From Thermodesulfobacteriota bacterium (lineage in GTDB: Bacteria > Desulfobacterota > Binatia > Bin18), in NCBI GenBank assembly GCA_964291405.2, contig OZ219926.1, forward strand, positions 2,784,001 through 2,848,000: a DNA stretch of 64,000 bases, given 5' to 3'. Position numbers and translations under genes: made by a program. The notes beneath the pieces were generated by a model. It was given only the letters and a program-made list of their open reading frames with translations, did no database searches and was not told the DNA's origin. Positions 5,288-58,759 of the stretch are shown here, piece after piece. Every line of letters starts with the position of its first letter. The first letter of the stretch is position 1.

Positions 5288-6715
5288 ATGACGGACCAGA
5301 TTGGCTCTGAAACAAATCCCCTCCGCGTCGCTATCTTCGGCTCGGGACCGGCTGGATTCTACGCGGTTGGCGAACTGCTCAAGCAAAAAGATATTGCTAC
5401 TCGGGTTGACCTGTTTGACCGCCTGCCGACTCCCTACGGATTGGTCCGGGGCGGCGTGGCACCGGATCATCAAAAAATTAAAGCGGTCATTCGGCAGTAC
5501 GAAAAATTTGCCAGTCGGCCCGGCTTTCGCTTTTTCGGAAACGTGACCTTTGGCGAAGATATCCGGCTGGCCGATACCCTGGCACACTACCATCAAGTCC
5601 TGTTTTCAACCGGCGCAGAATCCGACCGGCAGCTCGGCATTCCGGGTGAGGACTTGACCGGCAGCGACCCGGCGACGATCTTTGTCGGCTGGTATAACGG
5701 GCATCCTGATTACCGCGATCTCAACTATGATCTGAGCAATGTTGAACGTGTCGCCGTGATCGGAAACGGCAATGTGGCCATGGACGTTGCCCGTATTCTG
5801 GCCCGCTCTATTGAAGAACTTTCAAAAACGGATATCGCCGACTATGCGCTCGAAGCGCTCAAGAAAAGTGCGGTCAAGGAGATCTATCTGCTGGGCCGAC
5901 GGGGGCCGGCACAAGCGGCCTTCACCAACCCCGAGATTCGCGAACTGACCGAAATGCCGATCACCGATCTGGTCGTCGAGCCGAAAGACCTCGAACTTGA
6001 CGAGGCCAATGCCGAATTCCTGGCGCAGGCCACAGAGCCGGTGCATCAGCGCAATATGGATATCCTGACGGCCCAGATTCCCAAGGGCGAGGGAACGGCC
6101 CAAAGGAAAATTCGGGCGCGTTTTTTTGTCTCTCCGGTTGAACTCTACGGGACCGAGCGCGTCGAGGGCATGAAACTCGAGAAAAACCGTCTGGTGAAGG
6201 ATGACAGTGGGACGCTGCGTGCGCGCGGAACCGGAGAATACGAGGAGTTGCCGAATATTCAGATGGTCTTCCGCTCTATTGGCTATAAGGGCCATCCGCT
6301 GAAAGACGTTCCGTTTGACGAGCGCTCAGGGATTATTCCGAACCAGACCGGTCGGGTCATCGACCCGGAAACACAGGCGCCTCTTGAGCGCCTGTACGTG
6401 GCCGGCTGGATCAAGCGCGGTCCGTCCGGCGTGGTGGGTACGAATAAGCCGGATGCGATTGAAACCGTCGGACTCATGTTGGAAGACCTGCAACAGGGCA
6501 AGGTGCCCAATACCATCAACGCCAGCGACGAAGCAGTTCCGGCTCTGCTGGCCGAGAAGGGCGTCCGCTACGTCTCTTTTGCTGACTGGAAATATCTGGA
6601 TCAGATAGAAGTCGAGAACGGGAAAAAAGTGGGCAAGCCGCGTGAGAAGATGACGACCGTCGCGGAGATGCTGGCCGCGCTCGATACCCAGACTTTGCAA
6701 GCTGCTGCTAAATAA
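5288..6715 (+). CDS. fprA: Ferredoxin-NADP+ reductase (FprA/adrenodoxin reductase family)
   Basis: GSGPAGFY, PYGLVRGGVAPDH, VIGNGNVAMDVAR and GWIKRGPSGVVGTN motifs. Confidence 0.9.
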   Translation: MTDQIGSETNPLRVAIFGSGPAGFYAVGELLKQKDIATRVDLFDRLPTPYGLVRGGVAPDHQKIKAVIRQYEKFASRPGFRFFGNVTFGEDIRLADTLAHYHQVLFSTGAESDRQLGIPGEDLTGSDPATIFVGWYNGHPDYRDLNYDLSNVERVAVIGNGNVAMDVARILARSIEELSKTDIADYALEALKKSAVKEIYLLGRRGPAQAAFTNPEIRELTEMPITDLVVEPKDLELDEANAEFLAQATEPVHQRNMDILTAQIPKGEGTAQRKIRARFFVSPVELYGTERVEGMKLEKNRLVKDDSGTLRARGTGEYEELPNIQMVFRSIGYKGHPLKDVPFDERSGIIPNQTGRVIDPETQAPLERLYVAGWIKRGPSGVVGTNKPDAIETVGLMLEDLQQGKVPNTINASDEAVPALLAEKGVRYVSFADWKYLDQIEVENGKKVGKPREKMTTVAEMLAALDTQTLQAAAK

Positions 6716-6746
6716 TGGCAAACCGCCGTGGAAGTGAGTCAACGCT

Positions 6747-7724
6747 ATGAAAGCTATTCGGATACACGAGTTTGGTGAACCAGAGGTATTGCAGCTCGAA
6801 GAAGTCGCGGACCTGACCCCCGGGACGGGGCAAGTCGTGGTGCGCATGCACGCGGTCGGAGTCAATCCGGTTGAGACCTATATTCGGTCCGGTATCTACC
6901 CCAAGCCGCCGACGCCCTTCACGCCCGGGTCGGACGGGGCCGGCGTAATCGAGGCCGTGGGCGAGGGCGTGGACCGGGTTGCCGTGGGCGACCGGGTGTA
7001 TCTGGCCGGTTCTCTCAGCGGCACGTACGCCGAACAGGCCCTGTGCAAACAGGAGCAGGTACATCCGCTTGGCGAATCGGCATCGTTCGCCCAAGGGGCC
7101 GCCGTGTTTGTGCCCTATGGTACTGCCTATCAGGCGCTCTTTCACTGCGGCCATGCCTCACCCGGCGAAACGCTTTTCGTGCATGGGGCTAGCGGTGGAG
7201 TGGGCATAGCCGGGGTACAGCTCGGTCGGGCCGCTGGCATGACGGTCATTGGAACCGCGAGTACGGAGCGCGGGCGCCAACTCGTATCCGAACAGGGCGC
7301 GCAGCACGTTCTCGACCACAGTGCCGCCTCGTACCTGGAAGAAGTGCAGACCCTGACGGATGGACGGGGCGTTGATGTGATTTTGGAGATGCTGGCCAAC
7401 GTCAATCTCGCCAAAGACCTCGACCTCCTCGCCATGCATGGGCGCGTGGTTGTCATCGGCAATCGGGGCGAGAGGAATCAGGGCACGATCGAGATCAATC
7501 CGCGGGCGGCCATGATGCGGGATGCCTCCATCATCGGCATGACCTTACGCAACGCCACGCCGCAGGATCACGTCCGTATACACTCGGCCCTTGTGGCCGG
7601 TCTGGCCAACGGTACGCTCCGGCCCGTGATCGGACAGGAACTCCCCCTGGCCGAAGCCGCCCAAGCCCACCGCGCCGTAAGCGGAGCGGGCAAAGCCTAC
7701 GGCAAGGTGGTGCTGATACCGTAG
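6747..7724 (+). CDS. qor: NADPH:quinone oxidoreductase (zeta-crystallin/MDR family)
   Basis: GVNPVETYIRSG, PGSDGAG, HGASGGVG and GKVVL motifs. Confidence 0.88.
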   Translation: MKAIRIHEFGEPEVLQLEEVADLTPGTGQVVVRMHAVGVNPVETYIRSGIYPKPPTPFTPGSDGAGVIEAVGEGVDRVAVGDRVYLAGSLSGTYAEQALCKQEQVHPLGESASFAQGAAVFVPYGTAYQALFHCGHASPGETLFVHGASGGVGIAGVQLGRAAGMTVIGTASTERGRQLVSEQGAQHVLDHSAASYLEEVQTLTDGRGVDVILEMLANVNLAKDLDLLAMHGRVVVIGNRGERNQGTIEINPRAAMMRDASIIGMTLRNATPQDHVRIHSALVAGLANGTLRPVIGQELPLAEAAQAHRAVSGAGKAYGKVVLIP

Positions 7725-7840
7725 GGCTGGTCTTACTCACCGGTATTATCACCACTCGCTCGAATCGTGGTGGGCGCACTCGGCCTAGAGCAAAATTCAC
7801 ATTAGTGTCGCGTCCCACGGCCTCCGCGCGTTGCCCGATA

Positions 7841-7894
7841 CGTAGGGTGCGCCCTGCGCACCGGGGCAAGGTGGTGCATGGGATGCACCCTACG
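7841..7894. repeat. GTAG-type REP doublet, copy A
   Basis: CGTAGGGTGCGCCCTGCGCACC...GGTGCATGGGATGCACCCTACG; near-identical copy at 8042-8093. Confidence 0.85.
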
Positions 7895-7977
7895 GAACTC
7901 TGGAGAGCACCTCGCTACACCACGGAGGAAACTGCTCTAGAGCGTTTTACGATAAGTTGTAGCGGTTTCAGTATGCT

Positions 7978-8024
7978 GAGCGGGAAGTCTTTTGATGTTG
8001 AAATACATGCTTGATACCAATATT
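7978..8024 (+). pseudogene. vapBC toxin-antitoxin remnant (antitoxin C-terminus plus toxin N-terminus)
   Basis: ...EREVF-stop is coupled by TGATG to MLKYMLDTNI, the classic VapC PIN N-terminus. Similarity is lost shortly before the REP at 8042. Confidence 0.7.
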
Positions 8025-8041
8025 GCCTCGGCCCGGGCTCT

Positions 8042-8093
8042 CGTAGGGTGCGCCCTGCGCACCGGGAAGCTGGTGCATGGGATGCACCCTACG
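8042..8093. repeat. GTAG-type REP doublet, copy B
   Basis: Direct repeat of 7841-7894 with a different loop. Confidence 0.85.
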
Positions 8094-8182
8094 GAAGGGA
8101 ACGGCTGGCTATACGGAATCGTAAATTGCTCTAGCCGGAACAATAATTCCACCGAAGTTACTTCACAAAAGAGAGGTAACGT

Positions 8183-9145
8183 ATGCCTACAATAAACTTG
8201 TTTTCCACTTATCGGCAGGGAGAGAACCGCGTCACCGCAACTTTCCTGGCTGTCCTCCAACGGCTAAGCCTACTCAACATCGACCGGATTCTCGGAGGAC
8301 TTCTTGAAGAAGACGCATTTAGCCTTGTCTCCTTTGAGAATCAGCCCAAAGGGCAGAGCACAAGACCTGATGCCAGAATTAGAACAAAATCCGCTATTTG
8401 GATTGAAACCAAGACATCTTCTGACGCGGTGAACACCAACCAGATCCAAGGGCATTTGGAAGTCCTTGGAGAAGGCGAGCGCCTGCTATTGCTCACGCCG
8501 GATGCCGATGAGCCCCAGCAATTGCCCGATAATAATAGAGTTATCTGGTCGAACTTCAGACGCTTGGTCGAGATCGTTGAAGGCATTCTCAAGGACGAGG
8601 ATGAGCCTCCTTCCGAACGGGAGGTATTCCTCCTGAGGGAGTTCATAAAGATGATCCGGCAAGACGGACTCACAGGTTCTACCGAGCAACTTATGAGAAT
8701 AGTGCCCTGTGGTCAGAGCCTTGAGATAAACAGAGAATATGGAATCTACTTTCACCCATCAGATCGTAGCTATACGAAACATCGGTTCGTAGGAATCTAT
8801 AAGGACAAGACCGTCCAGGCAATCTGGGAGATTGAGAGTGTTTTTGACGTTGAATACAACGGAGTTGAGTTTGAAAAAATATTGGTGGAGGGGGAGATGA
8901 CAGATGACTACGATGACAGACTCAGATCTATAATCAATGATGCAAAGAGTGAATGTGACTATGACATTCGGACTGGACACCGCTTTTTTTGTGGAGAGCC
9001 TCAAGAGACCCATTATGAAAGGTTGTCGCGCGGTGGCATTCCGGGTGCTCGGTTTCAGAATTTGCGAGAAGTCATAGGAGACCAATTTGACAACTTGGAT
9101 GTAGAGGGCATTGCACAGAGATTAAGAGAAATGACATGGGAATGA
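8183..9145 (+). CDS. Putative PD-(D/E)XK nuclease-family protein
   Basis: ENRVTATFLAVL...RPDARI...IWIETK...NQIQGH pattern; visibly more AT-rich than the flanks; GAGG RBS. Confidence 0.6.
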   Translation: MPTINLFSTYRQGENRVTATFLAVLQRLSLLNIDRILGGLLEEDAFSLVSFENQPKGQSTRPDARIRTKSAIWIETKTSSDAVNTNQIQGHLEVLGEGERLLLLTPDADEPQQLPDNNRVIWSNFRRLVEIVEGILKDEDEPPSEREVFLLREFIKMIRQDGLTGSTEQLMRIVPCGQSLEINREYGIYFHPSDRSYTKHRFVGIYKDKTVQAIWEIESVFDVEYNGVEFEKILVEGEMTDDYDDRLRSIINDAKSECDYDIRTGHRFFCGEPQETHYERLSRGGIPGARFQNLREVIGDQFDNLDVEGIAQRLREMTWE

Positions 9146-9254
9146 TGTCAACGAGTACGTCTTTAGTTTACATCGTTCAGGTTGGAGATGTGCTCCACGG
9201 GACGCCCAAGCCTGCTCGGCTATGTTCCACCATGTCGTGAGCGTTGTTTTGCTA

Positions 9255-9395
9255 TCAGAAAATCAGCGAACAGAAAGAGATGCGACATGGACACAACGGT
9301 GCAAGTCCAACAAAGGGGCGATCCTGGTCGGAATGAGAGAGGAAAACTTCTTTTGGCACTAGAGACGGATACGCTTTGCCAAGAGAACGCGCCAT
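9255..9395 (-). pseudogene. Truncated second TIR-domain gene (46 codons)
   Basis: TGATG-coupled to the upstream TIR gene. Reads MARSLGKAYPSLVPKEVFLSHSDQDRPFV (TIR betaA/alphaA), then loses similarity and stops. Confidence 0.6.
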
Positions 9396-9805
9396 CAGGC
9401 GTGGCTGAGGATTGCGTCTGCGATTGGTTTGATTTCGGTTTCGTCGTTCCCGTGCTCACTGATCTTGAACTGCGGGAGTCGCTGAAGTATCCAGGGGATA
9501 TCGTCCTCCGGCAGTTGCTGGGGATCGCCTACCAATACCGGGATCAGGCGGTTACGATAACGGGTGCCGCTCAGAGCGGACTCGATTTCCCATTTTACCC
9601 AGGGTGAGCGCAACGCCTCAGGTGTTAGTAGCACAACCATAGCCTCGGACTCTTCGAGGGCCCGGGCGACCTCGTAGCCAAAATTGTCGCCCGGCATGAG
9701 GCAGCTATTCGCTTCCCAAACTTCAAGCCCGGCATCTTTCAGAACAGCGGAGATGTTCCCGACGAGCGGTTCATCCGTTTGGGCATGGCTGATAAAAACT
9801 TGCAT
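9395..9805 (-). CDS. Stand-alone TIR-domain protein (TIR_2)
   Basis: VFISHAQTD, PGDNF, VVLLTPEALRSPWVKWEIESAL (WxxxE catalytic Glu) and LIPV motifs. Confidence 0.88.
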   Translation of the reverse strand: MQVFISHAQTDEPLVGNISAVLKDAGLEVWEANSCLMPGDNFGYEVARALEESEAMVVLLTPEALRSPWVKWEIESALSGTRYRNRLIPVLVGDPQQLPEDDIPWILQRLPQFKISEHGNDETEIKPIADAILSHA

Positions 9806-9971
9806 TGAATCTCTCTGCTGACTTTTTAACCAATATCTACCCTAAAAGACGATACGAGACGCTAGCATAGGCGTCAAGGTCTCGTGTACAGAATGTCTGC
9901 ACAGCACGCGAGTGAGACTAGGGAGCCTGAGCCGTATTACAAGTCCTGTTCGTTCGACCTCGTTGTGCTTT

Positions 9972-11282
9972 TCAGAAGTCGGTCTGTCCAAAATCAATCT
10001 GGATATTGGAGTAGACCTCGTTCAGGCTGGATATGTGTTCCCACGGAACGCCTAAGCCTTCACGGCTGTTCCCCATCATGATGGGTTGCAGGTCTTCTCT
10101 GGCAAGAGGCTGGGCATCGGTGAAGACGAGCACGCCGGCCGCAGTGATCTGAGGTTGATCGAACTCGATAAATCGATCCGTCTCCCAGATGGCATCCTGC
10201 ATCGTCAGCGTCAGCATTTTTGTTTCACCCGGTTGGAAGAGTCCGTCGGGTTCCACCTGCATCGTCGGAATCTCGTTTTGTATATCCGTATAGAGGTCTT
10301 GCGTGGCGGGATTGATGAAAGACAGATAACTGGTCGTGAGCTTGCGTAAGACCACCGCTTGATCCGAGGTGTTCGTGGCTTCAACCTGCATGCTCAGGGA
10401 TCGCTCGGTGGTGTTATAGCGCAGCTCTTTGACCTCGGTCCGAACGGCACTCGGGACTGGGAGGCCGGACAGGTCCCACATTCTGGCGGCTTGGTGTGGA
10501 ATGATCGGCGGACGGCCCGAGTTCGTGACCAATAACCCTCCGATAACCAAGACCACCAGGACCACACCAAAAATAAGAGACGTTCGACGATCAGCGGGAG
10601 TGATTTGTTCTTCATCAACTCCGTTAACCAGCAGGGCGTAACGGACGAGCATCGGCCGTCTGGCCCAATAGCCCAGCCAGGCCAGCCCGAGAATCCCAAA
10701 CACGATATGCCAGCCGACAACCCGCCCAAACCCGTAGTGCTCCAGGTCTATGGTCTCGCCGGTTGCCGGAATCTGTACGGTATAGGATGGCGGGGCGTCG
10801 CCCGGCACAACGGTGATCCACTTGGCCGGACCCACCAGCCCGCCCGTACCGGACAGATTAATCAGCGGGTGGACATGATACCGGCCCGGCTCGCGCGCCT
10901 GGAGAATCATCTTAAAATCGTAAATCTCTCCTAATTCGATATTAAACGCGTTCTGGATAAAGCGGTCATTCACCCAGCGTTCTCGCACGGCAAGTTTCGG
11001 ACCCGGAACCAGGACGCCGAGCCATGCCAACTCCGGTATGGTCAGCATGCGTGGCCAGGAGTTCATCGCTCTGAACTTGCCGGTGACGGTCATGGTCTCG
11101 TTGACCGCGAGCCGCTCGTGCGAGAACTCTACGTTGAAGAACGAGATCCCGCGCATGCGGATAAACGGTTCGAGATTGTGCTCACCATGGGCGTGGACAA
11201 CCGGCGCCTGCATAAACGAGGCCCCGAACACGCACAGGCAGGCGAGGCTGACAGCGAGGCGGGCTTTTCCGAGTGGAGACAT
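9972..11282 (-). CDS. pmoB: Copper membrane monooxygenase subunit B (PmoB/AmoB family, XmoB)
   Basis: Signal peptide, then AHGE (mature N-terminal His32), FIRMR and GRYHVHP..GGLVGPAKWITV (HxH), two TM helices and a C-terminal cupredoxin-like domain. Confidence 0.93.
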   Translation of the reverse strand: MSPLGKARLAVSLACLCVFGASFMQAPVVHAHGEHNLEPFIRMRGISFFNVEFSHERLAVNETMTVTGKFRAMNSWPRMLTIPELAWLGVLVPGPKLAVRERWVNDRFIQNAFNIELGEIYDFKMILQAREPGRYHVHPLINLSGTGGLVGPAKWITVVPGDAPPSYTVQIPATGETIDLEHYGFGRVVGWHIVFGILGLAWLGYWARRPMLVRYALLVNGVDEEQITPADRRTSLIFGVVLVVLVIGGLLVTNSGRPPIIPHQAARMWDLSGLPVPSAVRTEVKELRYNTTERSLSMQVEATNTSDQAVVLRKLTTSYLSFINPATQDLYTDIQNEIPTMQVEPDGLFQPGETKMLTLTMQDAIWETDRFIEFDQPQITAAGVLVFTDAQPLAREDLQPIMMGNSREGLGVPWEHISSLNEVYSNIQIDFGQTDF

Positions 11283-11297
11283 GAAAGCCTCTACCAG

Positions 11298-12041
11298 TCA
11301 GGTTTGACGCAGGACTTTCTGTAGCGGCATAACGCCGAGCAGTTTTCCCAGGCCGATGCCAATCCAATACATGAAGGTGCAGGCGATACCGGCCATTAAT
11401 ATGCTGATCCAGATACGCTGGCCCAGGAAGGCTTGCAGCGTGCCTTCATCTATCCGGCGTAAGTATTCCGGGGTCTGGGGGCGGATGAAGTAATAGCCCA
11501 TCAAATCGGCAACGGTAAAAGTCTTGCCAAACAGCGTCACCGGCTGCAGAAAAGGCATAAGCATCAGCCAGTTCACGGGATAAAAGAGAAAACCCCATAA
11601 AAACCCACCAATCAGACTCGTCGCCAGATAGCTGCGTGACCAAAAGAGAATCAGGTCAAGTGCCAGTGCCATGGGAATCGTTGTGGCCGGCCAGATAAAA
11701 TTAATCGGATAATACTCCATAGCGTAAAAGCTGAAGACCCGACTCAGCCAGGCTCCAATCAAAACGAACACCGCGGTAAACGTGGCTCCCAGCGGCAGAC
11801 GCAGATAGTACCAGGCCAGATAGTGGCCCACCGCAGTGACCAACAGAGCGGAGCTCGGGCCGGCGATCGGCCACCACAGCTTGTCTTTCCAGTCCACCCA
11901 GAAATCCCAGTCACCCATATAGAGCATACGACTGACATGGGGGATAACGGTGAAAAAGCCGATCAGGGCCAGGAGCAGGATGACATCAAAGACCTTGGCC
12001 ATTCTGTGCTGGCCAAGCGCGGCAAGCTCTTCGGCCTTCAT
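11298..12041 (-). CDS. pmoA: Copper membrane monooxygenase subunit A (PmoA/AmoA family, XmoA), 247 aa
   Basis: MGDWDFWVDWKD, RLPLGAT, YPINFIWP, FYPVNW, VADLMGY and TPEYLRRIDEGTL motifs. Start re-called at ATG 12041 behind an AGGAGAGG RBS. Confidence 0.95.
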   Translation of the reverse strand: MKAEELAALGQHRMAKVFDVILLLALIGFFTVIPHVSRMLYMGDWDFWVDWKDKLWWPIAGPSSALLVTAVGHYLAWYYLRLPLGATFTAVFVLIGAWLSRVFSFYAMEYYPINFIWPATTIPMALALDLILFWSRSYLATSLIGGFLWGFLFYPVNWLMLMPFLQPVTLFGKTFTVADLMGYYFIRPQTPEYLRRIDEGTLQAFLGQRIWISILMAGIACTFMYWIGIGLGKLLGVMPLQKVLRQT

Positions 12042-12120
12042 TGTTTTTAACCTCTCCTGAGGCCCGACCCTTCCTGAACGCCGTGCGTTGCGGCAGTCCG
12101 CCGGTAGACGAGTCGGTAGC

Positions 12121-12972
12121 CTACGATGAGGCCTTCGCCTCGGTTGACGCTTGCTGGGCCATTGCTCCCAGGTTTTCAAAGATGCGTGGAACGGTCTTAA
12201 AGAGCAGCGCAAACCCGGCAAAAAAGAAATACGTCGCCCAGGCAAACGGCCAATGGTAGGGCTGCACAAACAGTTCTTCGGTAATCCAGCTTGAGTGTCC
12301 CAGCTCATTAAACGCCACATTGGCGAACAGGAACCAGCCGCCGGCCGGAAACAGCAGATAGCAGATGGGTATGCCTTTGCCCCCTTCACCGACGTAGAGA
12401 TAGTGTAAACGGTTATAGGCGTACCAGGAGCTGACGCCAGTCATGATGATCAACATGGGAAAGGTATAGAAGAAGAGGGGGATGTGGCTGGGCGTAAAGG
12501 CCGTATCGCGCACCACAATTTGGTGCCACACAGCGTCTTGCTCGGCAAAATAGCTGACCCCAAAGCCAAACGTAGCCGCCACCGCGACCGTAGCCCAGAG
12601 TTTGCCGATGTGGTTGAGCTCGTGCTCGGGGTCGATACGCCCCAACTCTTTTCTCTGAACGGCACAGGTCGAACAGGGTTTGCGATAAGCCGTAAAGCCG
12701 ATGATGGCGGCGGCAATAAGGACGATCCACTCGACGTAGAGCAGACCCAACCAATACTTCGCAAATTCAGGCGTCGTTGCGTCCATACCAACCGGGAACC
12801 ACCACTCGCCCTGCCACAGCCTGATGAGAAACAACGACAGCAGCCCCAGGCCGCCGCCTATGACCAGAAAGCGCATGAACGGCATCTCGCCGTGCGCTGT
12901 TTTGTCGTGCTTCATTTCCCCTATCTGAACGGCTTGACTTTCGACTGAGGCCGACATAGACGTTGCTGCCAT
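12121..12972 (-). CDS. pmoC: Copper membrane monooxygenase subunit C (PmoC/AmoC family, XmoC), 283 aa
   Basis: GMDATTPEFAKYW, FAEQDAVWHQIVVRDTAFTPSH (CuC D/H/H) and NVAFNELGHSSWITEELFVQPYHW (CuD N/H/H). Start at 12972 behind GGGGAGGG. Confidence 0.95.
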   Translation of the reverse strand: MAATSMSASVESQAVQIGEMKHDKTAHGEMPFMRFLVIGGGLGLLSLFLIRLWQGEWWFPVGMDATTPEFAKYWLGLLYVEWIVLIAAAIIGFTAYRKPCSTCAVQRKELGRIDPEHELNHIGKLWATVAVAATFGFGVSYFAEQDAVWHQIVVRDTAFTPSHIPLFFYTFPMLIIMTGVSSWYAYNRLHYLYVGEGGKGIPICYLLFPAGGWFLFANVAFNELGHSSWITEELFVQPYHWPFAWATYFFFAGFALLFKTVPRIFENLGAMAQQASTEAKASS

Positions 12973-13117
12973 AGAAGGTCCCTCCCCGTGCATTATCATT
13001 CAGTCCCGAGCGCCCTGTAGTGGACAACCCCGGAACAATAATCGCACTGTACACAGAATAACATCCCCGTACCACATATCTTCCAAAATATGCAAACAGG
13101 GCTTTGAGTTCTGTCCC

Positions 13118-14272
13118 TTACCGATTGTGCTCTTCGTCCTCAAATACCCCCGGCTCATGCCAGCGACGGCTGATGAGCAGTTTCCCGGCGTGGTGTCGCT
13201 TCTTGCGGAAGCCCAACAGGTGAAAAATTTCCATCACAAGCCACCGGGCAATGCGTGGCTCGACGACCAGGGTCGTGGTCTGGTCTGGGTGTCTACGTAC
13301 TCCGGGCAGCAGCGGTAAGAGTCGCTCAAGCCGGAGGTGGCGCAGCCACACCGCGAGACGCAACCAGAACCGCCGGACTGTTCTGACCAGGAAAAACCCG
13401 TCCGCACCCTGACCTTGATAGAGGGGCATCAGGATCTGTCCGGACTCAGGAGCTCGAATCTGGCCGTGACGGTCACGGGCCAAGAGCTGGCCCCGCCTGA
13501 CCGACTGGAAGTTTGTGAAGCCGGGTTCCATCACAAAATCGTCACCGGCTTGGATCAGATGGTGATAGCGGATTTCCAATACCGGCTGCCCGGTCGGCGT
13601 CTTTTCGGGCGCGTCCTGGGGCCGGAGACAGCCAGCGGTTGTCAGGACGCTCCAGATGGCCACAGTATGGTTCTCCACTGCGCTTGGCGAAGCGTGCTGT
13701 CCGCCTTCAAAACCAATGACGACATGTCCCTGCTCGCTCAGATAATTCAGCAGCGTACCCTCTAGCTGTTCTTCCAGGCCAAGAATGACCGGAGCCTGAA
13801 GACCAAAGGCAAAGCGACGGTTGGGCAGGCTATCGCCAATCACCACAAACGGCTGACCCTCGGCAGAGGTGGTGTGCAGGTCGAGGAAGACCGCCGGTCC
13901 CTGGTGCTGGGCCAGCACGGTTTCTATTGCCGTCAGCAGCTCCCGCTGCTCCTGCTCTTCTGAGGTCAGCTCAGCGCGTTGCTCCCTCACCCCTTGGAGG
14001 CGCTCAGATATCCACAGTCGGTTGAAATCCTCATCAATATACCGACAGCCGCGCGCCAGCGCGGCGCGATTTCCGGTGAGCGCGAGTAGCTTGCCTCGAA
14101 AGGAAGGACACCGGGAATGTAAACTGTGCAGCACATCCTGCAAGGCAAAAACCCCAGCCGGCTCATTGCCGTGCATCCCTCCAATACCAATCACGAGCGG
14201 CCCGGGCGTATCGCCGCCATAACTGCCGAGCAGGCGGGGAAAGCCGGGGGACTGGGCGGGAGGGTCGGGCAT
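13118..14272 (-). CDS. Succinylglutamate desuccinylase/aspartoacylase-family (M14) hydrolase
   Basis: GGMHGNE, DFNR, DLHTTS and FEGGQH motifs; start overlaps the stop of the upstream ligase. Confidence 0.85.
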   Translation of the reverse strand: MPDPPAQSPGFPRLLGSYGGDTPGPLVIGIGGMHGNEPAGVFALQDVLHSLHSRCPSFRGKLLALTGNRAALARGCRYIDEDFNRLWISERLQGVREQRAELTSEEQEQRELLTAIETVLAQHQGPAVFLDLHTTSAEGQPFVVIGDSLPNRRFAFGLQAPVILGLEEQLEGTLLNYLSEQGHVVIGFEGGQHASPSAVENHTVAIWSVLTTAGCLRPQDAPEKTPTGQPVLEIRYHHLIQAGDDFVMEPGFTNFQSVRRGQLLARDRHGQIRAPESGQILMPLYQGQGADGFFLVRTVRRFWLRLAVWLRHLRLERLLPLLPGVRRHPDQTTTLVVEPRIARWLVMEIFHLLGFRKKRHHAGKLLISRRWHEPGVFEDEEHNR

Positions 14273-16188
14273 CAGTCCTTCCGGGCTGACCGTTCAAGCA
14301 GACGGGCCGTTAGCGTCAGGATGTCATGCTCGGTCACGATCCCGATCAGCCGCTCGTCCTTGGCCACCAGCAGAGACGCGCTTTTTTCTTGTTGCATCCG
14401 GGCGACTGCTTCTGCGAGGGGTGTCTCGGGTGGAAGCGTCAGCGGCTTCGACTGCATGATCGCCCCGACCGGGACCGGCTCGCTCTCGGCCTGCTGGAGT
14501 GACGGTGTACAGTGACGCAAGACCTCAAAGCACGAGATCAAGCCAACCAGCTTGCCCTGGTCGTCCTCAACCGGGATATGCCGAATCCGTTTCCAGTCCA
14601 TCAGCTTGGCCACCAAGTCTATCGGTTCATTGGGATGGACAGTGAACAGATCGGTCGTCATACATTCTTCAATACGCAGGGTGTGCACTTTCTCACTCCA
14701 GCCTTCTTCAATCTGGGCCAACGGCCACTCATGCACCGGGCTTCCCGCCCATTGTCTTCGAGCGGTGGCTGCGGTCAGCGCGCTCAGCCGCGCCGCTTGG
14801 GTATCAGTCTCCCGCATGTCTGCTAATGAGCGCAAGAGCCAAGACGAACCGGTCCGGCCGACCGTGACCCGTTGTTCGATCACGCCCAGGTACCGCTCAA
14901 TGTCCGCAGGGTTCAGCCTTGCCGTGCGGAGTCCGTGCCGGGCCAGCGGTAATAAGTCCTGGCGAATCAAGTCACGGGCTAGCACGACCTGCCCGTCGAG
15001 CCAGGTAAACTGGGCGTCCAAACCTCTCTGAGCCGCGGCAAGAAAATTGATTTCCGCGTTGTGGAAGGGCATTTTTTGAGCAATATCACCATAGGTTTGT
15101 TGCCCTCCCCGGAGTAAACCGAGGAAAAAGGCAGCGTTCGCGACCTCATCAACAACACTCGGACCGGCTGGCAGGACGCGGTTCTCAATACGGATATGGG
15201 CCTTCCCCCCTCCGATGCCAAAGCAACCTCTATTCCAGCGATACACCGTCCCCGTATGGAGACGCAGGGCTTGTAATTCGGGCAGCCCGCCCTGTTCCAG
15301 TAAGCGCAAAGAATCTTCCCGCGATGGCGTTCCGATCAGGACGCGAAAACGGGCCAAATCTTCCTGGATGAGATCGAGTATCGAGTGGTCTACCCACTGT
15401 TGACCGAAGCTCACCCGTGGCGCACGCTCACGCAGATGGGTGCTGGCGCGGCGGGTATCAACAGATTGCTGAAACAATGGAATCCGCGTCTCGCGCCACA
15501 GCCGGCGGCCAAACAGCAATGGCGAGTTGGCGGCCGCGGCCAGGAGCGGAGCCGTCATGGCCTGGGCGATATTATAACACTGGGGAAACTCGGCTGGCTC
15601 GACTTGGTAGTGGACCTGAAAACTGGTACAGCCCGCTTCCAGCATGACCGAGTCGTGCTTGAGGTTCAGCTCATCCGCGCCCTTGAGCTGAAATTCGTAA
15701 TCGCCCCCACGGAGCTGGGTGAGTATGGTATTCAATTCCCGGTAGCGCGGCTTGGGAGTCATATTGGTCAGCGCCAAGTCAGACTTGCGCAGCGTCGGCA
15801 AAATCCCACTCAGGACCACCTCGGCCCCACACTGGTGAGCGGCAGCCCGCACTGCGGCGAGTGAGCGGTTGAGTTGACCCTCAAGCTGACTCAGGCAGTC
15901 TCCCTCAAATACTAAGGGGTCCAGATTGATCTCCAGATTAAACAGCCCCAACTCAGTGGTGTAATGGGGGTCATCGATCCGCTCCAGGATATCCAGCGCG
16001 AGCGGCGCCGGATGCCAGGCGGCATCCACTAAGAACAGTTCTTGCTCAACCCCAATCCGGTGGACCCCGGATTCGATCAAACCGGTGTCAAGCATGTGCT
16101 CCAGCGCGTGGATATCGCGCAGGAGATGGGTGATAAAGCGGCGGAGTTGGCCTGAATCACTATCGCGCAGTACGTCTTGATTTCCCAC
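14272..16188 (-). CDS. Glutamate-cysteine ligase (GCS2)-family protein with C-terminal CBS pair
   Basis: GVEQE, TELGLFNLEIN, TSFQVH, RWNR and HIRIENRVLPAGP motifs; two CBS repeats (MTTDLFTV..., MQSKPLTL...). Confidence 0.85.
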   Translation of the reverse strand: MGNQDVLRDSDSGQLRRFITHLLRDIHALEHMLDTGLIESGVHRIGVEQELFLVDAAWHPAPLALDILERIDDPHYTTELGLFNLEINLDPLVFEGDCLSQLEGQLNRSLAAVRAAAHQCGAEVVLSGILPTLRKSDLALTNMTPKPRYRELNTILTQLRGGDYEFQLKGADELNLKHDSVMLEAGCTSFQVHYQVEPAEFPQCYNIAQAMTAPLLAAAANSPLLFGRRLWRETRIPLFQQSVDTRRASTHLRERAPRVSFGQQWVDHSILDLIQEDLARFRVLIGTPSREDSLRLLEQGGLPELQALRLHTGTVYRWNRGCFGIGGGKAHIRIENRVLPAGPSVVDEVANAAFFLGLLRGGQQTYGDIAQKMPFHNAEINFLAAAQRGLDAQFTWLDGQVVLARDLIRQDLLPLARHGLRTARLNPADIERYLGVIEQRVTVGRTGSSWLLRSLADMRETDTQAARLSALTAATARRQWAGSPVHEWPLAQIEEGWSEKVHTLRIEECMTTDLFTVHPNEPIDLVAKLMDWKRIRHIPVEDDQGKLVGLISCFEVLRHCTPSLQQAESEPVPVGAIMQSKPLTLPPETPLAEAVARMQQEKSASLLVAKDERLIGIVTEHDILTLTARLLERSARKD

Positions 16189-35886: not shown

Positions 35887-36753
35887 TTACGCTGGCATCA
35901 GGCCGAAGTCGTACTCCAGCAAGGTGAAGGGTGTTGTCAGGCCATAGCGTTCGGCCAGGGTTGCGTCCTCACACTCCTTGAAGTCGGCCACGAGCGAGTC
36001 CTTGGTGGCAAAGACCGCGTCCGAGTCCAGATAGGCGTCACCCTTCACGAAGATGTGGGTAGTCAGGGGTCTGTAGCCGTCAGCGGAGAGCATGAAATGC
36101 ACATGCGCCGGACGCATCCCGTGCCGTCCGGTTGCATCCAGCATGCGGCCGACCGGGCCATCGGTTGGAATCGAATAGCTCACCGGGGTTTCAGAGATGA
36201 TCGCATAACCGCCGTCTTCTTCAGTCGTGAATCTCCCGCGCAGATTCCACTCAGGCGCGTCCTGGTCCTGAATATCGTACAGGCCGTTGGCCGAGGTCTG
36301 CCACACATCAACCGTCGCTCCTGCAATGGGTGCCCCCTCGGCGTCCGTGACCTTCCCTCTCATTAACGTTGGCCGTGCGCCAACGTCTCTGCGGATGACG
36401 GATGTGCCGTTCTTCTGTTCCGGTGCGTCCTCGACATAAAATGGACCCAAGACGGTCGATTCGGTCCCAAGACCCGTCTTGGGATGATTGAGCGTATCGA
36501 CCAGCATGGACACTCCCAGTGTGTCGGACAGCAGGATAAACTCCTGCCGTTTGTCGTCGCACATTTTGCCCGTAGCAGTCAGAAACTGGATGCCCGCAAA
36601 CCATTCATCCTCCGTGAGTTCAACCTCCTTCACAAAGGCGTGCATATGCTCGATGAGGCTGGTGATGATGCGCTGCATGCGTGGGTCCGAGGTCTTGCTC
36701 GCATATTCTTTCACAACCGCTTCGGTGATGTTGTCTGCTGTATAATCACGCAT
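35887..36753 (-). CDS. Intradiol ring-cleavage dioxygenase (hydroxyquinol/catechol 1,2-dioxygenase family)
   Basis: RQEFILLSDTLG, TVLGPFY, GLYDIQ, YSIPTDGPVG and MRPAHVHF motifs (Tyr/Tyr/His/His Fe ligands). Confidence 0.92.
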   Translation of the reverse strand: MRDYTADNITEAVVKEYASKTSDPRMQRIITSLIEHMHAFVKEVELTEDEWFAGIQFLTATGKMCDDKRQEFILLSDTLGVSMLVDTLNHPKTGLGTESTVLGPFYVEDAPEQKNGTSVIRRDVGARPTLMRGKVTDAEGAPIAGATVDVWQTSANGLYDIQDQDAPEWNLRGRFTTEEDGGYAIISETPVSYSIPTDGPVGRMLDATGRHGMRPAHVHFMLSADGYRPLTTHIFVKGDAYLDSDAVFATKDSLVADFKECEDATLAERYGLTTPFTLLEYDFGLMPA

Positions 36754-36965
36754 ACTCTTCCCTCCTCTTGGCGTGGACAAGTCAAAGCCTGCTCGATACA
36801 GGGTTGGCTACCTCCAGGAATAGCGTAGCGGTGGCTTGTCGCATACCCCGCTATCATTCTCTTCTGTTGACATAACGTATCGGTTGATGAGCATATGATG
36901 TGTTTGAGGGACACCCATCCATTCGTAGATAAGTAAACGCGAGGGGAAAGAGAGGGATATCCTAT

Positions 36966-37886
36966 ATGGCACGCTTACGGAGGCTCGAGTACGGGTCCCC
37001 GGTCGACCAGTGGCCCACCACCTTGCGGTTAGGGATTGAGAAGGGATTCTTTGAGGAAGAAGGTCTTGATCTCTCGATCCGGGTCATCTTCGGGGGACCG
37101 CCGCTGGCGGCGGCCTTAGATGCCGGGGAGGTGCAGATTGGCGAGATTGGCTCACCCCCGGGCCTTACCGCGATCAGTCATGGGGCGCAGTTCAAGATTA
37201 TTGGCGGCGGGACACACCAGAAACTACTGTTTTATCTTGGCGTTCGGAGTGACATCCAAGATTTCCAGGGGTTGAAAGGCAAACGGTTTGGCCTGCTCTC
37301 CATGGGGAGCTGCGACGAGTGGGTGGGTCGCGCCATGTTCCTCAAGGGAGGACTGGATCCGGACCGGGATATTACCTTTATCCCCCTCTTGAACAAGTAT
37401 TCCCAGATTCTCTCGTTGATGAAGGAGGGAGAAGTCGATGCAGTACTCGGGGTAGAGCCAGATTTAGCCCTGGGCGAGAGTCAAGGGCTGCTCAGGACGT
37501 GGGCAGGCGCCTACGAAGAGTCCTACCTGCCGCGCTTCCAGTGGTCTATCATTGTTGCGCAAAACGATTTCATTGAGCGCGAGCCCGATGTGATCCAGGC
37601 GCTGCTACGGGCGTACCAGCGTTCGGCCCACTATGCTGCCGAGCATGTTGACGAGTGGGTGGATTTTGTCTCACGTTGGTACCGTATTGATCGGGCTGTG
37701 GCGCAGCGGGCCGTCGCGCGCGACCTTCCCCAATTCCACCTTGACTGCCAGATAGACCTGGTCGGGCTGCAGAAGGTCATTGAGCTCCAGCAGCGGATGG
37801 GCGTCATTACCCGTTCGCTGTCTACCGAGGAGGTTGTGAATCTACAGTTTGTGCCGAATCTAAGTGAACCGGTCGGGGCGCACTGA
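36966..37886 (+). CDS. NMT1/SsuA-like substrate-binding-fold protein
   Basis: GIEKGFFEEEGLD, LKGKRFG and GLDPDRDITF motifs. No clear signal peptide and no adjacent permease. Confidence 0.8.
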   Translation: MARLRRLEYGSPVDQWPTTLRLGIEKGFFEEEGLDLSIRVIFGGPPLAAALDAGEVQIGEIGSPPGLTAISHGAQFKIIGGGTHQKLLFYLGVRSDIQDFQGLKGKRFGLLSMGSCDEWVGRAMFLKGGLDPDRDITFIPLLNKYSQILSLMKEGEVDAVLGVEPDLALGESQGLLRTWAGAYEESYLPRFQWSIIVAQNDFIEREPDVIQALLRAYQRSAHYAAEHVDEWVDFVSRWYRIDRAVAQRAVARDLPQFHLDCQIDLVGLQKVIELQQRMGVITRSLSTEEVVNLQFVPNLSEPVGAH

Positions 37887-37902
37887 CGAGGAGAGATCAC
37901 CC

Positions 37903-38910
37903 ATGAGATTAGGCTTCTGGCCGCCGGTATATGGGAACTGGATTATTTCGACGCAGCCGGAGACACGCAACGCATCGTTCGACTACACAAAGCGGGCAGC
38001 GTTGCTGGCTGAGCGGCTTGGATTCCAGACCTTGCTGCTCGCAGAACACTTCATGAACCCGGTTGCCCCTGAGCTGGAGCAACTCGATGCTTGGACGACG
38101 GCCAGCGCGCTGGCGGCTGTGACAGAGCGGATCGAGATCCTTGCAGCGGTCAAGCCCGGTTTCCGTGCCCCGGGGGTCATCGCCAAGATGGCGAGTAACA
38201 TAGATCATATCAGTCACGGGCGTTTTGCTGTGAATCTTGTCTCGGCCTGGTGGTTGCCGGAGTTTGAAATGCTGGGAGTGCCAGTGCTGCGCCACGACGA
38301 TCGCTATGCGCGTTCGGAAGAGTTCTTGACCGTTATCAAGGGGAGCTGGACCCAGGAGAAGTTCTCCTTTTCGGGGAGGTACTTTACGGTCAAAAATGCC
38401 ACCCTGTTTCCCAAGCCCGTGCAAAAGCCCCATCCGCCAATCTATATTGGGGGAGAGTCGGAGCAGGGGAGGCGGTTGGGAGCAAAGATGGCAGATATTT
38501 TCTTAATCAACGGTCGGCCACTGGGGGAGATTAAGGAGATCATTCAGGATGTCCAAGGACTGGCCGCGGAGCACGGACGCCAGCTTCGTTTTGGGATGTC
38601 TGCCTTTGTCATCTGCCGTGACACTGAGCGGGAAGCACTGGCCGAGTTTGAGCGGCTTGTGGCCCTCCGCAAGGCCGAGATCATTGGTGCAGACAAGGAG
38701 GTGGCGATGTTCAAGACGGTCCCCTACGCAACCCGAGAGGTCGGCACGAATGGAGGAATCGCAGCCGGGCTGGTTGGGACGGCTCCTCAGATTGCCGAGC
38801 GGATGCTAGCATTTGAGGCGATCGGCGTTGAGACCTTTTTGTTGCAGTTCCATCCGGTTCTGGAGGAGCTAGAGCGTTTTGGAGAGACCGTCGTGCCATT
38901 GCTCCGGTAG
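37903..38910 (+). CDS. LLM-class FMNH2-dependent monooxygenase (SsuD/SfnG-like)
   Basis: DAWTTASALAAVTERIEIL, IDHISHGRFAVNLVSAWW, IYIGGES and GLVGTAPQIAER motifs. Confidence 0.85.
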   Translation: MRLGFWPPVYGNWIISTQPETRNASFDYTKRAALLAERLGFQTLLLAEHFMNPVAPELEQLDAWTTASALAAVTERIEILAAVKPGFRAPGVIAKMASNIDHISHGRFAVNLVSAWWLPEFEMLGVPVLRHDDRYARSEEFLTVIKGSWTQEKFSFSGRYFTVKNATLFPKPVQKPHPPIYIGGESEQGRRLGAKMADIFLINGRPLGEIKEIIQDVQGLAAEHGRQLRFGMSAFVICRDTEREALAEFERLVALRKAEIIGADKEVAMFKTVPYATREVGTNGGIAAGLVGTAPQIAERMLAFEAIGVETFLLQFHPVLEELERFGETVVPLLR

Positions 38911-38919
38911 GTAGTCCCT

Positions 38920-40398
38920 ATGGCTGATGTGACAAGCGAATTGACAATAGGCCGTAAAGACTTCGTTGCTGAAGCCAACGCGTGGAGTGACGCCCAATCC
39001 GCTGCCGCTCAGCGTCTTCCAGCCCTGCTTGAGGAGCGCGGTATTAAAACGGTTCGCGTCGCGTACTGCGATCAGCACGGTTTGATGCGCGGCAAAAGTT
39101 TAACCGCACCACATTTCCTTTTAGCTTTGCGTAATGGGGTAACAGAGACGGTCGCCACGCTCGGTATGGATACCGCCAACACGATTTCCTTCCCGCTCTT
39201 TGAGCGTGATGGCGGCTTTGGCTTGGAGCAAATGGGTGGTGTTGGTGACCTCTTACTCGTGCCTGACCCCTCTACGCTGAAAGTCCTACCATGGGCACCT
39301 CAGACCGCCTGGATACTCTCTGACCTATATTTAAAAGATGGCAGCCGCTGCCCTTTTGATTGCCGCCATGTCATGCGTAGCGCTCTCAATGCACTCCAAG
39401 CTGAAGGTTATCACTTTGCCGCCGGACTAGAACTAGAGTTCTATATTTTCGACGTTGAGGATCAACGGCTGGCATTACAGGATTCTGGGCAGCCGGCCGA
39501 GCCGCCAGTGGTGCGTGCGCTCAATCATGGTTATCAATTGCACGGCAGTGGTCAGATCGACGTTCTTGAGCCCCTGGCAGATGAGTTGCGCGATGTAATG
39601 ACTGAACTTGGATTGCCGTTACGGACGATTGAAGTGGAATGGGGGCCGGGACAATTTGAGGTTACTTTTAATCCGCTCGTCGGCCTTGATGCGGCCGATA
39701 CGCTCCTCATGTTTCGCACGGCAACCAAGCATATGATGCGCCGCCAAGGCCGTCTGGCTAGTTTTATGACTAAACCGGCGTTACCCAATATCTATTCTAG
39801 TGGCTGGCACCTGCACCAGTCTTTGCAAGATGCAAACTCGGCCAGCAATGCCTTTACAGCTAATGACCCACAGACGTTGGTGAGTGATACTGGCCGCTAC
39901 TATATCGGTGGGCTGCTAGCGCATGCGGCCGCCGCGACAGCCTTTTCCAACCCAACCATTAATGGCTATAAGCGCCTGAACGCAAACCCTTTGGCTCCGA
40001 ACCGCGCCGTGTGGTCACACGACAACCGGGGGGCCATGTTACGCCTGATCGGTGGATACGGGGCTCCAGACACGCATATCGAGAATCGCAGTGGGGAGCC
40101 GTGCGCGAATCCCTATCTGTATATGGCCTCGCAGATCCATGCTGGCCTTGATGGCCTTCGCCATAAAACGGACCCTGGTGGCCCGATCCAAGATAATCCC
40201 TATGCTCAAACTGATAAGCCACCTCTACCCAACAGCTTGATGCAGGCAATTGATGCGCTTGATCAGTCTGCTGCGCTACGCGCCGGGTTCAGCGACCAGT
40301 TTGTGGACTATTACCTCAAGCTCAAACGATTCGAAATTGCTCGCTTCCTTTCCTATGTGACTGACTGGGAGCATAGGGAGTATTTTGAGCTATATTGA
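38920..40398 (+). CDS. tdnQ: Glutamine-synthetase-like gamma-glutamyl-arylamine ligase (TdnQ/AtdA1-like)
   Basis: DQHGLMRGK, GLELEF, EWGPGQFE, SSGWHLHQSL, IENRSGEPCANPYL and WEHREYF motifs; directly upstream of a Rieske pair. Confidence 0.85.
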   Translation: MADVTSELTIGRKDFVAEANAWSDAQSAAAQRLPALLEERGIKTVRVAYCDQHGLMRGKSLTAPHFLLALRNGVTETVATLGMDTANTISFPLFERDGGFGLEQMGGVGDLLLVPDPSTLKVLPWAPQTAWILSDLYLKDGSRCPFDCRHVMRSALNALQAEGYHFAAGLELEFYIFDVEDQRLALQDSGQPAEPPVVRALNHGYQLHGSGQIDVLEPLADELRDVMTELGLPLRTIEVEWGPGQFEVTFNPLVGLDAADTLLMFRTATKHMMRRQGRLASFMTKPALPNIYSSGWHLHQSLQDANSASNAFTANDPQTLVSDTGRYYIGGLLAHAAAATAFSNPTINGYKRLNANPLAPNRAVWSHDNRGAMLRLIGGYGAPDTHIENRSGEPCANPYLYMASQIHAGLDGLRHKTDPGGPIQDNPYAQTDKPPLPNSLMQAIDALDQSAALRAGFSDQFVDYYLKLKRFEIARFLSYVTDWEHREYFELY

Positions 40399-40408
40399 TC
40401 GGGGGAGA

Positions 40409-41764: not shown

Positions 41765-42369
41765 GTGCTGCCACCAGTACCAAGCGAAACCTGCTGCGCG
41801 AACAGCCAGGCCCTTCGACCTATGTGAATGATGCGTTGTACGAGCGACTGTTCCGGATTGCCGAGCAATGGTCAGAGGTCGGTCCTACGGTTCCCACCTC
41901 ACAGGCTGCCGTTGTGACTGCTTTGCTCAATCAAGAATGCCGTCTGCTTGATGACGAACGTTTCGAAGACTGGCTCGATCTCTTTGTCGAAGAGTGTGTG
42001 TATTGGATACCGAGCGATGTCGTGCCACAAGACCCCCGGCGCGAAATTACCTGGGAGCTGCAAGACCGGCGGCGCTTGGAAGACCGGGTTGCCCGAATAC
42101 GTACGGGTCAGGCCTTTTCGCAAATTCCACCAACGCGGACCCGACACTGTTTAAGCAATATTGAGATCTGGACGGCTGGTACTGACGAACTACGTGTGCG
42201 CACCAATCTGACCATTCATACCTATCGCAAGGGAGAACAGCAGACGTTGCCGTGCATGGGCGGATATGTGTTACAGCGCCAAGCCAACGACGCTTGGCTT
42301 ATCGAGCTGAAGCAGATTAATCTCATCGACGCGGATCAGGCCCAGGGCAATATTTCGTTCTTCCTCTAG
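41761..42369 (+). CDS. tdnA2: Ring-hydroxylating oxygenase beta subunit
   Basis: ECRLLDDERFEDWL..YWIP, RLEDRVARI, SQIPPTRTRH and GNISFFL motifs; ATGA overlap with alpha. Confidence 0.88.
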   Translation: MSAATSTKRNLLREQPGPSTYVNDALYERLFRIAEQWSEVGPTVPTSQAAVVTALLNQECRLLDDERFEDWLDLFVEECVYWIPSDVVPQDPRREITWELQDRRRLEDRVARIRTGQAFSQIPPTRTRHCLSNIEIWTAGTDELRVRTNLTIHTYRKGEQQTLPCMGGYVLQRQANDAWLIELKQINLIDADQAQGNISFFL

Positions 42370-42377
42370 GGACTCAT

Positions 42378-58300: not shown

Positions 58301-58614
58301 TCAGAGAAGGGGTCCCGATGCGCACGGCAATCATAGAGGGTGCTAAAGGGCGCTTTCGTCCGATCATGCTCACTTCCGTGACGACTTTCCTGGGCTTCAC
58401 CCCTCTCATTCTGGAACGCTCCATTCAGGCCCAGTTCCTGATCCCCTTTGCCGCGTCGCTCGGTTTCGGCATTCTCTTCACCACGGCCATCCTTATGATG
58501 GTCGTTCCGGCGTTATACGCGATCCAATTCCGGCTGATTTCTTCGCGTGGTAATTCTGGTGTCCCCGACACCTCGGTACACGCCCGATCCGCGAGCGAGA
58601 GCCTGCACGCGTAA
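55376..58614 (+). CDS. RND efflux permease, with two +1 indels (about 56630 and 56682)
   Basis: GIVVDDAIVVAE, VNDSLVM and RFRPIMLTS motifs. An intermediate frame reads YERKRGTPGVAAAIRGV and links the two ORFs. Confidence 0.88.
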
Positions 58615-58759
58615 GCAAGCGTACGAACTCTGGACTGTAGACGATGTTCCTACTGAAGGACATTTTTCTACAGTTTTGCTATACAAGCGATCAGGCGCTG
58701 TGTATCTTCCATCAGAGACTCCTTAAAAAGTGCGCACAATGGAGGTGACACCCTTGGAA

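Follow-up and report, generated by a model that had tools for sequence, protein, structure and literature searches.

The 64,000-nucleotide stretch of contig OZ219926.1 analyzed here (the window) carries xmoCAB, a complete and divergent operon for a copper membrane monooxygenase (CuMMO); enzymes of this superfamily govern the initial step in the oxidation of methane, ammonia, and small alkanes. We consider it probable that xmoCAB encodes a working CuMMO of uncultured Binatia, with a short-chain alkane or alkene as its most likely substrate. The genes, together with a feature of XmoC discussed below, are located as follows.

12121..12972, minus strand: xmoC (PmoC/AmoC-like), 283 amino acids (aa) from the conserved ATG; Pfam PF04896 (AmoC), E 3e-43
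11298..12041, minus strand: xmoA (PmoA/AmoA-like), 247 aa; Pfam PF02461 (AMO), E 2e-59
9972..11282, minus strand: xmoB (PmoB/AmoB-like), 436 aa; PF04744 (Monooxygenase_B), E 1e-98, residues 33-391
12664..12675, minus strand: codons of the XmoC CxxC (KPCSTCAV), coordinates calculated from residue numbers

The three genes are adjacent minus-strand open reading frames (ORFs) lying head to tail between 9972 and 12999. The mechanically called xmoC ORF spans 12121-12999; its conserved start is the ATG at 12972, which has GGGGAGGG 7 nucleotides (nt) upstream and yields a product beginning MAAT..., a start common to most of 20 orthologs. Similarly, the mechanical xmoA ORF reaches a GTG at 12389, overlapping xmoC, and the real start is almost certainly the ATG at 12041, with GGAGAGG 10 nt upstream. 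xmoB starts at ATG 11282, preceded by GAGG at 5 nt. Purine-rich sites therefore precede all three ATGs by 5 to 10 nt, and the intergenic spacing is 79 nt between xmoC and xmoA and 15 nt between xmoA and xmoB. The N terminus of XmoB is a signal-peptide-like stretch ending in VHA, followed by His32. Subunits matching PF04896, PF02461, and PF04744 are encoded together, which places the operon in the CuMMO superfamily. Coordinates, Pfam matches, and purine-rich sites all agree with the intact, tightly spaced C-A-B operon with ribosome-binding sites described in an earlier, first-pass annotation, whose observation of a complete divergent xmoCAB was confirmed in every particular tested.

The copper ligands, which had been called conserved at the outset, were seen to be so in structure alignments, in orthologs, and in a family alignment. 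XmoB contains the CuB ligands His32 and H136-x-H138, kept in 21 of 21 orthologs. In the 283-aa numbering, the CuC ligands of XmoC are D146, H150, and H163 (D-x3-H-x12-H), and its CuD ligands are N222, H226, and H240 (N-x3-H-x13-H). All nine residues of the CuB, CuC, and CuD sites are kept in each of the 21 orthologs; one row of this check (L018) is shifted by one column, and its motifs are intact in the printed sequence. Moreover, the six XmoC ligands are invariant in an alignment of 15 XmoC/PmoC sequences, among whose members are the window clade, the second operon of the same genome, five Methylococcales, and one Cycloclasticus. Among solved structures, the best relatives are 7s4l_C for XmoC (E 3e-33), 6cxh_A for XmoB (E 5e-73), and, for XmoA, the ammonia monooxygenase (AMO) chain 9cl6_B (E 2e-47) and the particulate methane monooxygenase (pMMO) chain 6cxh_B (E 5e-47).

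No internal stops were found in XmoA or XmoB of the 21 orthologs. Two stops were flagged in the extracted XmoC rows, one in L018, where it lies upstream of the likely start, and one in L022. L022 is a relative 75% identical, whose xmoC frame as extracted (6289-7983) extends over 564 codons and lacks the stop at its expected position; this could be a real read-through, a record error, or an extraction flaw. Median pairwise ratios of nonsynonymous to synonymous substitution (dN/dS; Nei-Gojobori, 21 orthologs, excluding pairs that were saturated or had a dS of ≤0.05) were 0.143 for xmoB, 0.087 for xmoA, and 0.156 for xmoC, the upper range of the last being inflated by the L018 extraction artifact, and 0.059, 0.089, and 0.041 for three flanking genes. 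Thus, xmoCAB is under purifying selection, somewhat weaker than that on its neighbors, with medians of 0.087 to 0.156 rather than the values near 1 that had been named as arguing against function.

In an index of public sequencing runs, this stretch occurs mostly in runs labeled "sponge metagenome." As RNA evidence, we compared assembled contigs from four RNA libraries of four studies over positions 8000-15000. RNA contigs cover 11419-12989 (xmoA and xmoC) in all four runs, as well as parts of xmoB, at 90 to 100% likeness, and one contig of 1,573 nt with a depth of 41 bridges xmoC and xmoA. In none of the four runs does a contig fall in bin 8234-9403 or 13148-14083; stretches lacking RNA contigs, namely, the flanks and, in some runs, parts of xmoB, are not evidence of silence. 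These contigs are only suggestive: they are consistent with transcription and with a published report on pmoA (see below) and do not amount to proof. Taken together, intact frames and ligands, purifying selection, RNA contigs, and the distance to the next PmoA cluster representative (44% identity) bear out the earlier proposal of a functional enzyme from a poorly characterized clade. That xmoCAB is instead a decaying or silent relic is scarcely credible. The operon is deleted in a sister species, where a Binatia locus (L030, 8001-8241) retains only a 241-bp 3′ xmoB remnant between the same neighbors, and it is degraded in one further genome (G025), as such a relic might be; nevertheless, the frames are intact, dN/dS is 0.09 to 0.16 over 21 orthologs, the ligands are kept in all of these, and RNA-library contigs cover the operon.

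The first-pass annotation had also stated that the sequence between the motifs departs from the methanotroph and nitrifier consensus, and both equivalog scores and identities of 32 to 43% agree. All six NCBIfam models scored under their cut-offs. For the pMMO equivalogs (TIGR03078/03079/03080), the scores were 145 versus 281 for XmoC, 272 versus 395 for XmoB, and 204 versus 318 for XmoA; for the AMO equivalogs (NF041641/NF041557/NF041640), they were 158 versus 319 for XmoC, 218 versus 290 for XmoA, and a borderline 335.7 versus 336 (AmoB_BACT) for XmoB. Identity to Methylococcales and Cycloclasticus sequences is 32 to 35% for XmoB, 37 to 43% for XmoA, and 37 to 39% for XmoC. Searched against 1.84 billion cluster representatives, XmoA had a 50% cluster to itself (P0040, 97% identical), the nearest representative after that being the one at 44%. 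At the level of 90% clusters, relatives extend down to 53 to 57% for XmoA, 52 to 61% for XmoB, and 56 to 60% for XmoC, and after a gap the next matches are at ≤47%, ≤37%, and ≤40%, respectively. A quick maximum-likelihood tree of 49 PmoA rows, comprising unnamed representatives and one cluster of an Actinomycetota metagenome-assembled genome (MAG), supports the window clade at 100%, gives it a stem of 0.89 changes per column, and places it outside the group holding the Methylococcales pMMO and the Cycloclasticus enzyme. The names attached to XmoA relatives (20 proteins and cluster members) are only Actinomycetota, Gammaproteobacteria, and Desulfurellaceae bacterium MAG labels, and no amplicon-type names occur among 61 PmoA matches. 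The site of primer A189f is present with 1 mismatch, and neither pmoA copy of the genome has an A682r site with 3 or fewer mismatches, a pattern that does not bear on clade membership.

Two of these scores bear on whether xmoCAB encodes an energy-yielding ammonia monooxygenase like that of nitrifiers, a reading that we judge highly improbable. Among solved structures, an AMO ranks first for XmoA, only 1.6 bits ahead of a pMMO, and XmoB all but reaches the AmoB_BACT cut-off; however, XmoA and XmoC score far under the AMO cut-offs. Furthermore, a search for HAO (PF13447) gave no match in the genome, a weak test since its control rang in no genome, and RuBisCO was not found in the genome either. 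Only one ORF has >5 CxxCH motifs, and this octaheme protein is the cytochrome c of a bc-type complex. With no HAO match and the sole octaheme ORF belonging to that complex, energy-yielding ammonia oxidation is unlikely. The complex itself, at ~129-137 kb of contig C3, has a large multiheme subunit, an 899-aa cytochrome c with 8 CxxCH motifs that follows split cytochrome b genes. The window is instead rich in acyl-CoA, luciferase-like, and aromatic-catabolic genes, a crowding that fits the heterotrophic look ascribed to the genome at first pass: acyl-CoA dehydrogenases, enoyl-CoA hydratases, and six luciferase-like monooxygenases surround the operon, and RND pumps, aromatic-ring dioxygenases, and P450s are also encoded.

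The genome (4.95 Mb in three contigs, 97.5% complete) holds exactly two CuMMO operons. The second, at ~217.2-220.4 kb of contig C3, is arranged C-A-x-B: a 117-aa gene separates A from B, and its XmoB is shorter, at 372 aa. Its subunits share only 32% (B), 39% (A), and 32% (C) identity with those of the window operon. Downstream, on the same strand, are a 176-aa ORF, a multicopper oxidase (564 aa), and a cupredoxin-like ORF (243 aa); these copper proteins are followed by a PedH-like pyrroloquinoline quinone (PQQ) dehydrogenase, whose best solved relative is the quinoprotein ethanol dehydrogenase 6zcv, and then by two luciferase-like monooxygenases (C3 ~205-225 kb). CuMMOs of other than the window type (≤46% identity to the window PmoA), the second operon included, are widespread in Binatia.

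The window type has a far narrower distribution. The operon search returned 28 loci. Twenty encode an XmoB 72 to 97% identical over most of its length and are labeled Candidatus Binatia; one locus at 69% is labeled Enterobacteriaceae, a label that we take for a binning error; and six loci labeled Methylococcales, Methylococcaceae, or Methylocucumis and one Cycloclasticus locus match XmoB at 32 to 35%. An XmoA search of 301 Binatia genomes gave matches in 68 (one of these, G208, is flagged unpublished, and no other claim depends on it). PmoA at ≥78% identity was found only in genus g1 (24 of 26 genomes, that of the window included) and genus g3 (4 of 7), which belong to one family; all other full-length XmoA matches among the 301 genomes are at ≤46%, and a 39-residue fragment in G025 matches at 72%. 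With a g3-type XmoB as the query, 26 of 28 g1 genomes and 6 of 8 g3 genomes match, and the other genera of the family reach ≤38%. Between the two genera, XmoA is 78 to 80% identical and XmoB only 58 to 64%. In G134, xmoB is in two pieces. Given this restriction to two genera and the losses within them, the window operon is an accessory, lineage-restricted paralog.

That Binatia carry CuMMOs is not new. In passages of Murphy et al. 2021 (PMC8262859), CuMMO genes are reported from two orders of Binatota, namely, Bin18, where both of 2 genomes had them and one of these came from a sponge, and Binatales, where 9 of 48 genomes did, in CAB and CAxB/CAxxB organization, with two copies in two genomes and conserved PmoB histidines; the PmoA sequences are assigned there to the TUSC/cluster 2 group and to an "Actinobacteria/SAR324" group, which corresponds to the published clade "putative pmoA Binatales." Ramirez et al. 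2023 (PMC9999580) describe transcription of pmoA by sponge-associated Binatota, proposed as methane sinks. In a study of Slate River MAGs (PMC11264602) and in a preprint (bioRxiv 10.64898/2026.02.02.703227), Binatia sequences fall close to hydrocarbon monooxygenases, and the preprint gives at least ~86% amino acid identity to the original TUSC amplicons as the criterion of TUSC membership. The earlier statement that divergent CuMMO clades are reported from Binatota is thus borne out by what these sources (PMC8262859, PMC9999580, and the preprint) contain in the sections cited. The window clade is of the Binatota/Binatia CuMMO kind already reported, and its novelty is less than that statement's context had implied. 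What is added here is the presence of two divergent operons, the restriction to two genera with losses, purifying selection, RNA contigs, and a CxxC insertion in XmoC.

The alcohol dehydrogenases of the genome bear on the substrate. The first-pass annotation had noted no hao, methanol dehydrogenase, or copper chaperone nearby. This stands within the window, where a Pfam scan of the 56 larger ORFs gave no domain of an HAO, a PQQ dehydrogenase, or a copper chaperone (no search was aimed at small ORFs or pmoD), but not for the genome as a whole, which elsewhere has one XoxF-like and four ethanol-type PQQ dehydrogenases. All five exceed the TIGR03075 cut-off; the XoxF-like one matches 4mae at 788 bits, and another is the PedH-like enzyme adjoining the second operon. 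XoxF is present in 50 of 55 genomes of the family, operon-less ones included. We therefore rejected its co-occurrence with xmoCAB as evidence and do not regard the XoxF-like methanol dehydrogenase as tied to the window operon.

Methane is possible as a substrate, unsupported by linkage. The corresponding explanation, a true particulate methane monooxygenase in a methanotroph or facultative methane oxidizer that acts as a methane sink in sponges, seems to us rather unlikely, although the copper ligands are all retained, the operon is covered by contigs from RNA libraries, an XoxF-like lanthanide methanol dehydrogenase is encoded, and sponge Binatota are proposed to be methane oxidizers, with pmoA transcription reported, in passages of PMC9999580 and PMC8262859. 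Its subunits, however, are under the pMMO equivalog cut-offs, and the clade lies outside the Methylococcales pMMO group. Fae and Mch, of the tetrahydromethanopterin route, and RuBisCO were not found in the 97.5% complete genome (the serine cycle and thiol- and folate-linked routes were not searched), and XoxF also occurs without the operon. Moreover, in passages of bioRxiv 10.64898/2026.02.02.703227, methane modules are incomplete in TUSC-encoding Binatia MAGs of the order JACPRU01, and both Binatia pmoA-like clades are put among hydrocarbon monooxygenases.

A short-chain alkane or alkene is favored because it best fits this placement in the literature and the set of alcohol dehydrogenases encoded. 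Judging from the solved pMMO and AMO homologs, XmoC, XmoA, and XmoB should form a membrane complex. Drawing on O2 and on reducing equivalents from the membrane, this complex may hydroxylate a small hydrophobic substrate at the XmoC copper sites, and the resulting alcohol would pass to the periplasmic PQQ dehydrogenases of the genome. In this scheme, the window operon is the lineage-restricted accessory paralog, and the CAxB type, whose neighbors include a multicopper oxidase and a PQQ dehydrogenase of the ethanol type, is the one widespread in Binatia.

Several observations weigh against this assignment of a working, hydrocarbon-oxidizing CuMMO. The operon is dispensable: it is absent from a complete, single-contig g1 genome (G150), it was not found in the XmoA and XmoB searches of two more genomes (G251 and G043), and in G025 it is degraded to the 39-residue xmoA fragment and an XmoB without its first 71 residues. 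The RNA runs were chosen for holding this stretch, their contigs are assemblies, and DNA carry-over is possible. We found no alcohol or aldehyde dehydrogenase specifically linked to the window operon, and the XoxF-like methanol dehydrogenase of the genome leaves room for methane. Since the downstream quinone oxidoreductase persists in the species from which the operon is deleted, synteny is silent on function. In the PmoA tree, 19 of 46 forks are open and the deep position is not settled; an approximately unbiased test does not reject a sister relationship of the two paralogs (P = 0.297), so that an old duplication within Binatia and a separate acquisition are both compatible with the data. 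Finally, the label "hydrocarbon-type" rests on the literature and not on named HMO, BMO, or TUSC sequences.

XmoC contains an insertion of ~6 to 8 residues (by alignment) that holds a C-x-x-C (KPCSTCAV) between predicted helices 2 and 3 and is absent from solved pMMO. Both cysteines are kept in 21 of 21 orthologs and in relatives down to 56% identity, and they are present in three distant PmoCs of 34 to 37% identity (P0344, P0345, and P0348); in the alignments, they are absent from Methylococcales, Cycloclasticus, the second operon of the genome, and six other divergent matches. In a single-chain model of XmoC, mediocre overall (mean pLDDT 64.5) and reaching ~80 locally around the CxxC, the motif opens a short helix that is flanked by two long ones. 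As in the topology of pMMO, this loop probably faces the cytoplasm. A literature search, judged by titles and abstracts, met no report on a CXXC in PmoC. On these grounds we tentatively put forward, as a possibility short of an expectation, that the window operon represents a distinct CuMMO subfamily with an XmoC CxxC, which arose in or was acquired by the ancestor of the two genera, acts on a substrate differing from that of the second operon, and uses the CxxC as an extra metal or redox site. If so, two copper monooxygenases would split roles between them within one symbiont, the CxxC would be a metal or redox site unseen in any solved pMMO or AMO, and the subfamily would have come alongside an older Binatia CuMMO in sponge-associated genera.

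A different explanation, which we hold to be quite unlikely, is that the substrate is some other small molecule of sponges or seawater (ammonia co-metabolically, acetone, halomethanes, or volatile sulfur compounds), with substrates split between the operons. The two paralogs are as distant from each other as from pMMO, the window type is limited to two genera, its XmoC has the clade-specific CxxC insertion, and CuMMOs are described as broad in substrate in passages of PMC12533140. This evidence is purely permissive, however, and no operon-linked gene points to such a substrate.

Gene order around the operon in relatives runs from an NFACT-like gene through a variable pair of AstE-like and GCS2-CBS genes to CAB, and then through a variable insert to a PIG3-like quinone oxidoreductase and a flavoprotein. 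We rejected a functional link to the upstream AstE-like and GCS2-CBS genes, which are missing in 8 of 20 operon-bearing related loci, and likewise one to the PIG3-like quinone oxidoreductase, which stays where the operon is deleted. In the window, the stretch between xmoB and the quinone oxidoreductase (8183-9805, 50% GC) contains a 320-aa ORF (8183-9145, plus strand) with no Pfam or NCBIfam match, present in 0 of 28 related loci, and a gene for a TIR-domain protein (9395-9805, minus strand) that occurs in 3 related loci (L010, L014, and L016). It looks like a variable, possibly defense-related insert.

Farther along the window, 35887-43127 encodes a catechol 1,2-dioxygenase, an NMT1-like binding protein, a luciferase-like monooxygenase, a glutamine-synthetase-like protein, the alpha and beta subunits of a Rieske dioxygenase, and a class-I glutamine amidotransferase, a layout that we take to resemble aniline-dioxygenase clusters. 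At 58730-62982 lie two tandem ORFs of unusual architecture, in both of which a GPP34 (Golgi phosphoprotein 3) domain is joined to a cytochrome P450 domain. An outer-membrane efflux protein (52507-54158) and an AcrB-type pump (55376-58614) are each split into two overlapping ORFs, which could reflect a frameshift or an assembly indel.

The substrates of divergent CuMMO clades bear on claims of unrecognized methane sinks in sponges and soils. Existing pmoA-based claims on sponge Binatota, as set out in the passages cited, do not separate the two paralogs. A near-complete genome with both Binatia operon types in full context is a good source of expression constructs and could serve as a reference for mapping transcripts to each paralog separately.

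Compared with known systems, the window operon has the same subunit set, gene order, and length as gammaproteobacterial pMMO (PDB 6cxh/7s4l and 3rgb/1yew), and all CuB, CuC, and CuD ligands align. It differs in that the "H" position of the pMMO motif RTIHW in PmoB is Ser in XmoB and in that XmoC has two insertions, that of ~6 to 8 residues with the CxxC and another of 3 to 8 residues near residue 200; its subunits are 32 to 43% identical to those of pMMO and do not reach the TIGR03078/79/80 cut-offs. Bacterial AMO (PDB 9cl6, 9leg, and 9pxf) belongs to the same fold family, and XmoA scores equally against AMO and pMMO; nonetheless, the window proteins score under the NF0416xx cut-offs, and an HAO-like protein was not found in the genome. 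With respect to the HMO/BMO enzymes of Actinobacteria/SAR324, the PmoA of an Actinomycetota MAG (P0043 cluster) is 40% identical to XmoA and does not come out as sister to the window clade in the PmoA tree, whose deep forks are partly open. The second operon of the genome agrees in its three subunits and in its copper ligands, but its XmoC, unlike that of the window, has no CxxC insertion. The closest counterparts are the published Binatota/Binatia CuMMOs, which come from the same bacterial class. As described in the passages cited, they share the CAB order, the CAxB second copy found in this genome, and the conserved PmoB histidines, with sponge association and pmoA transcription reported for Bin18; the two-genus restriction, the XmoC CxxC, and the faster divergence of XmoB than of XmoA between the two genera are not mentioned in those passages.

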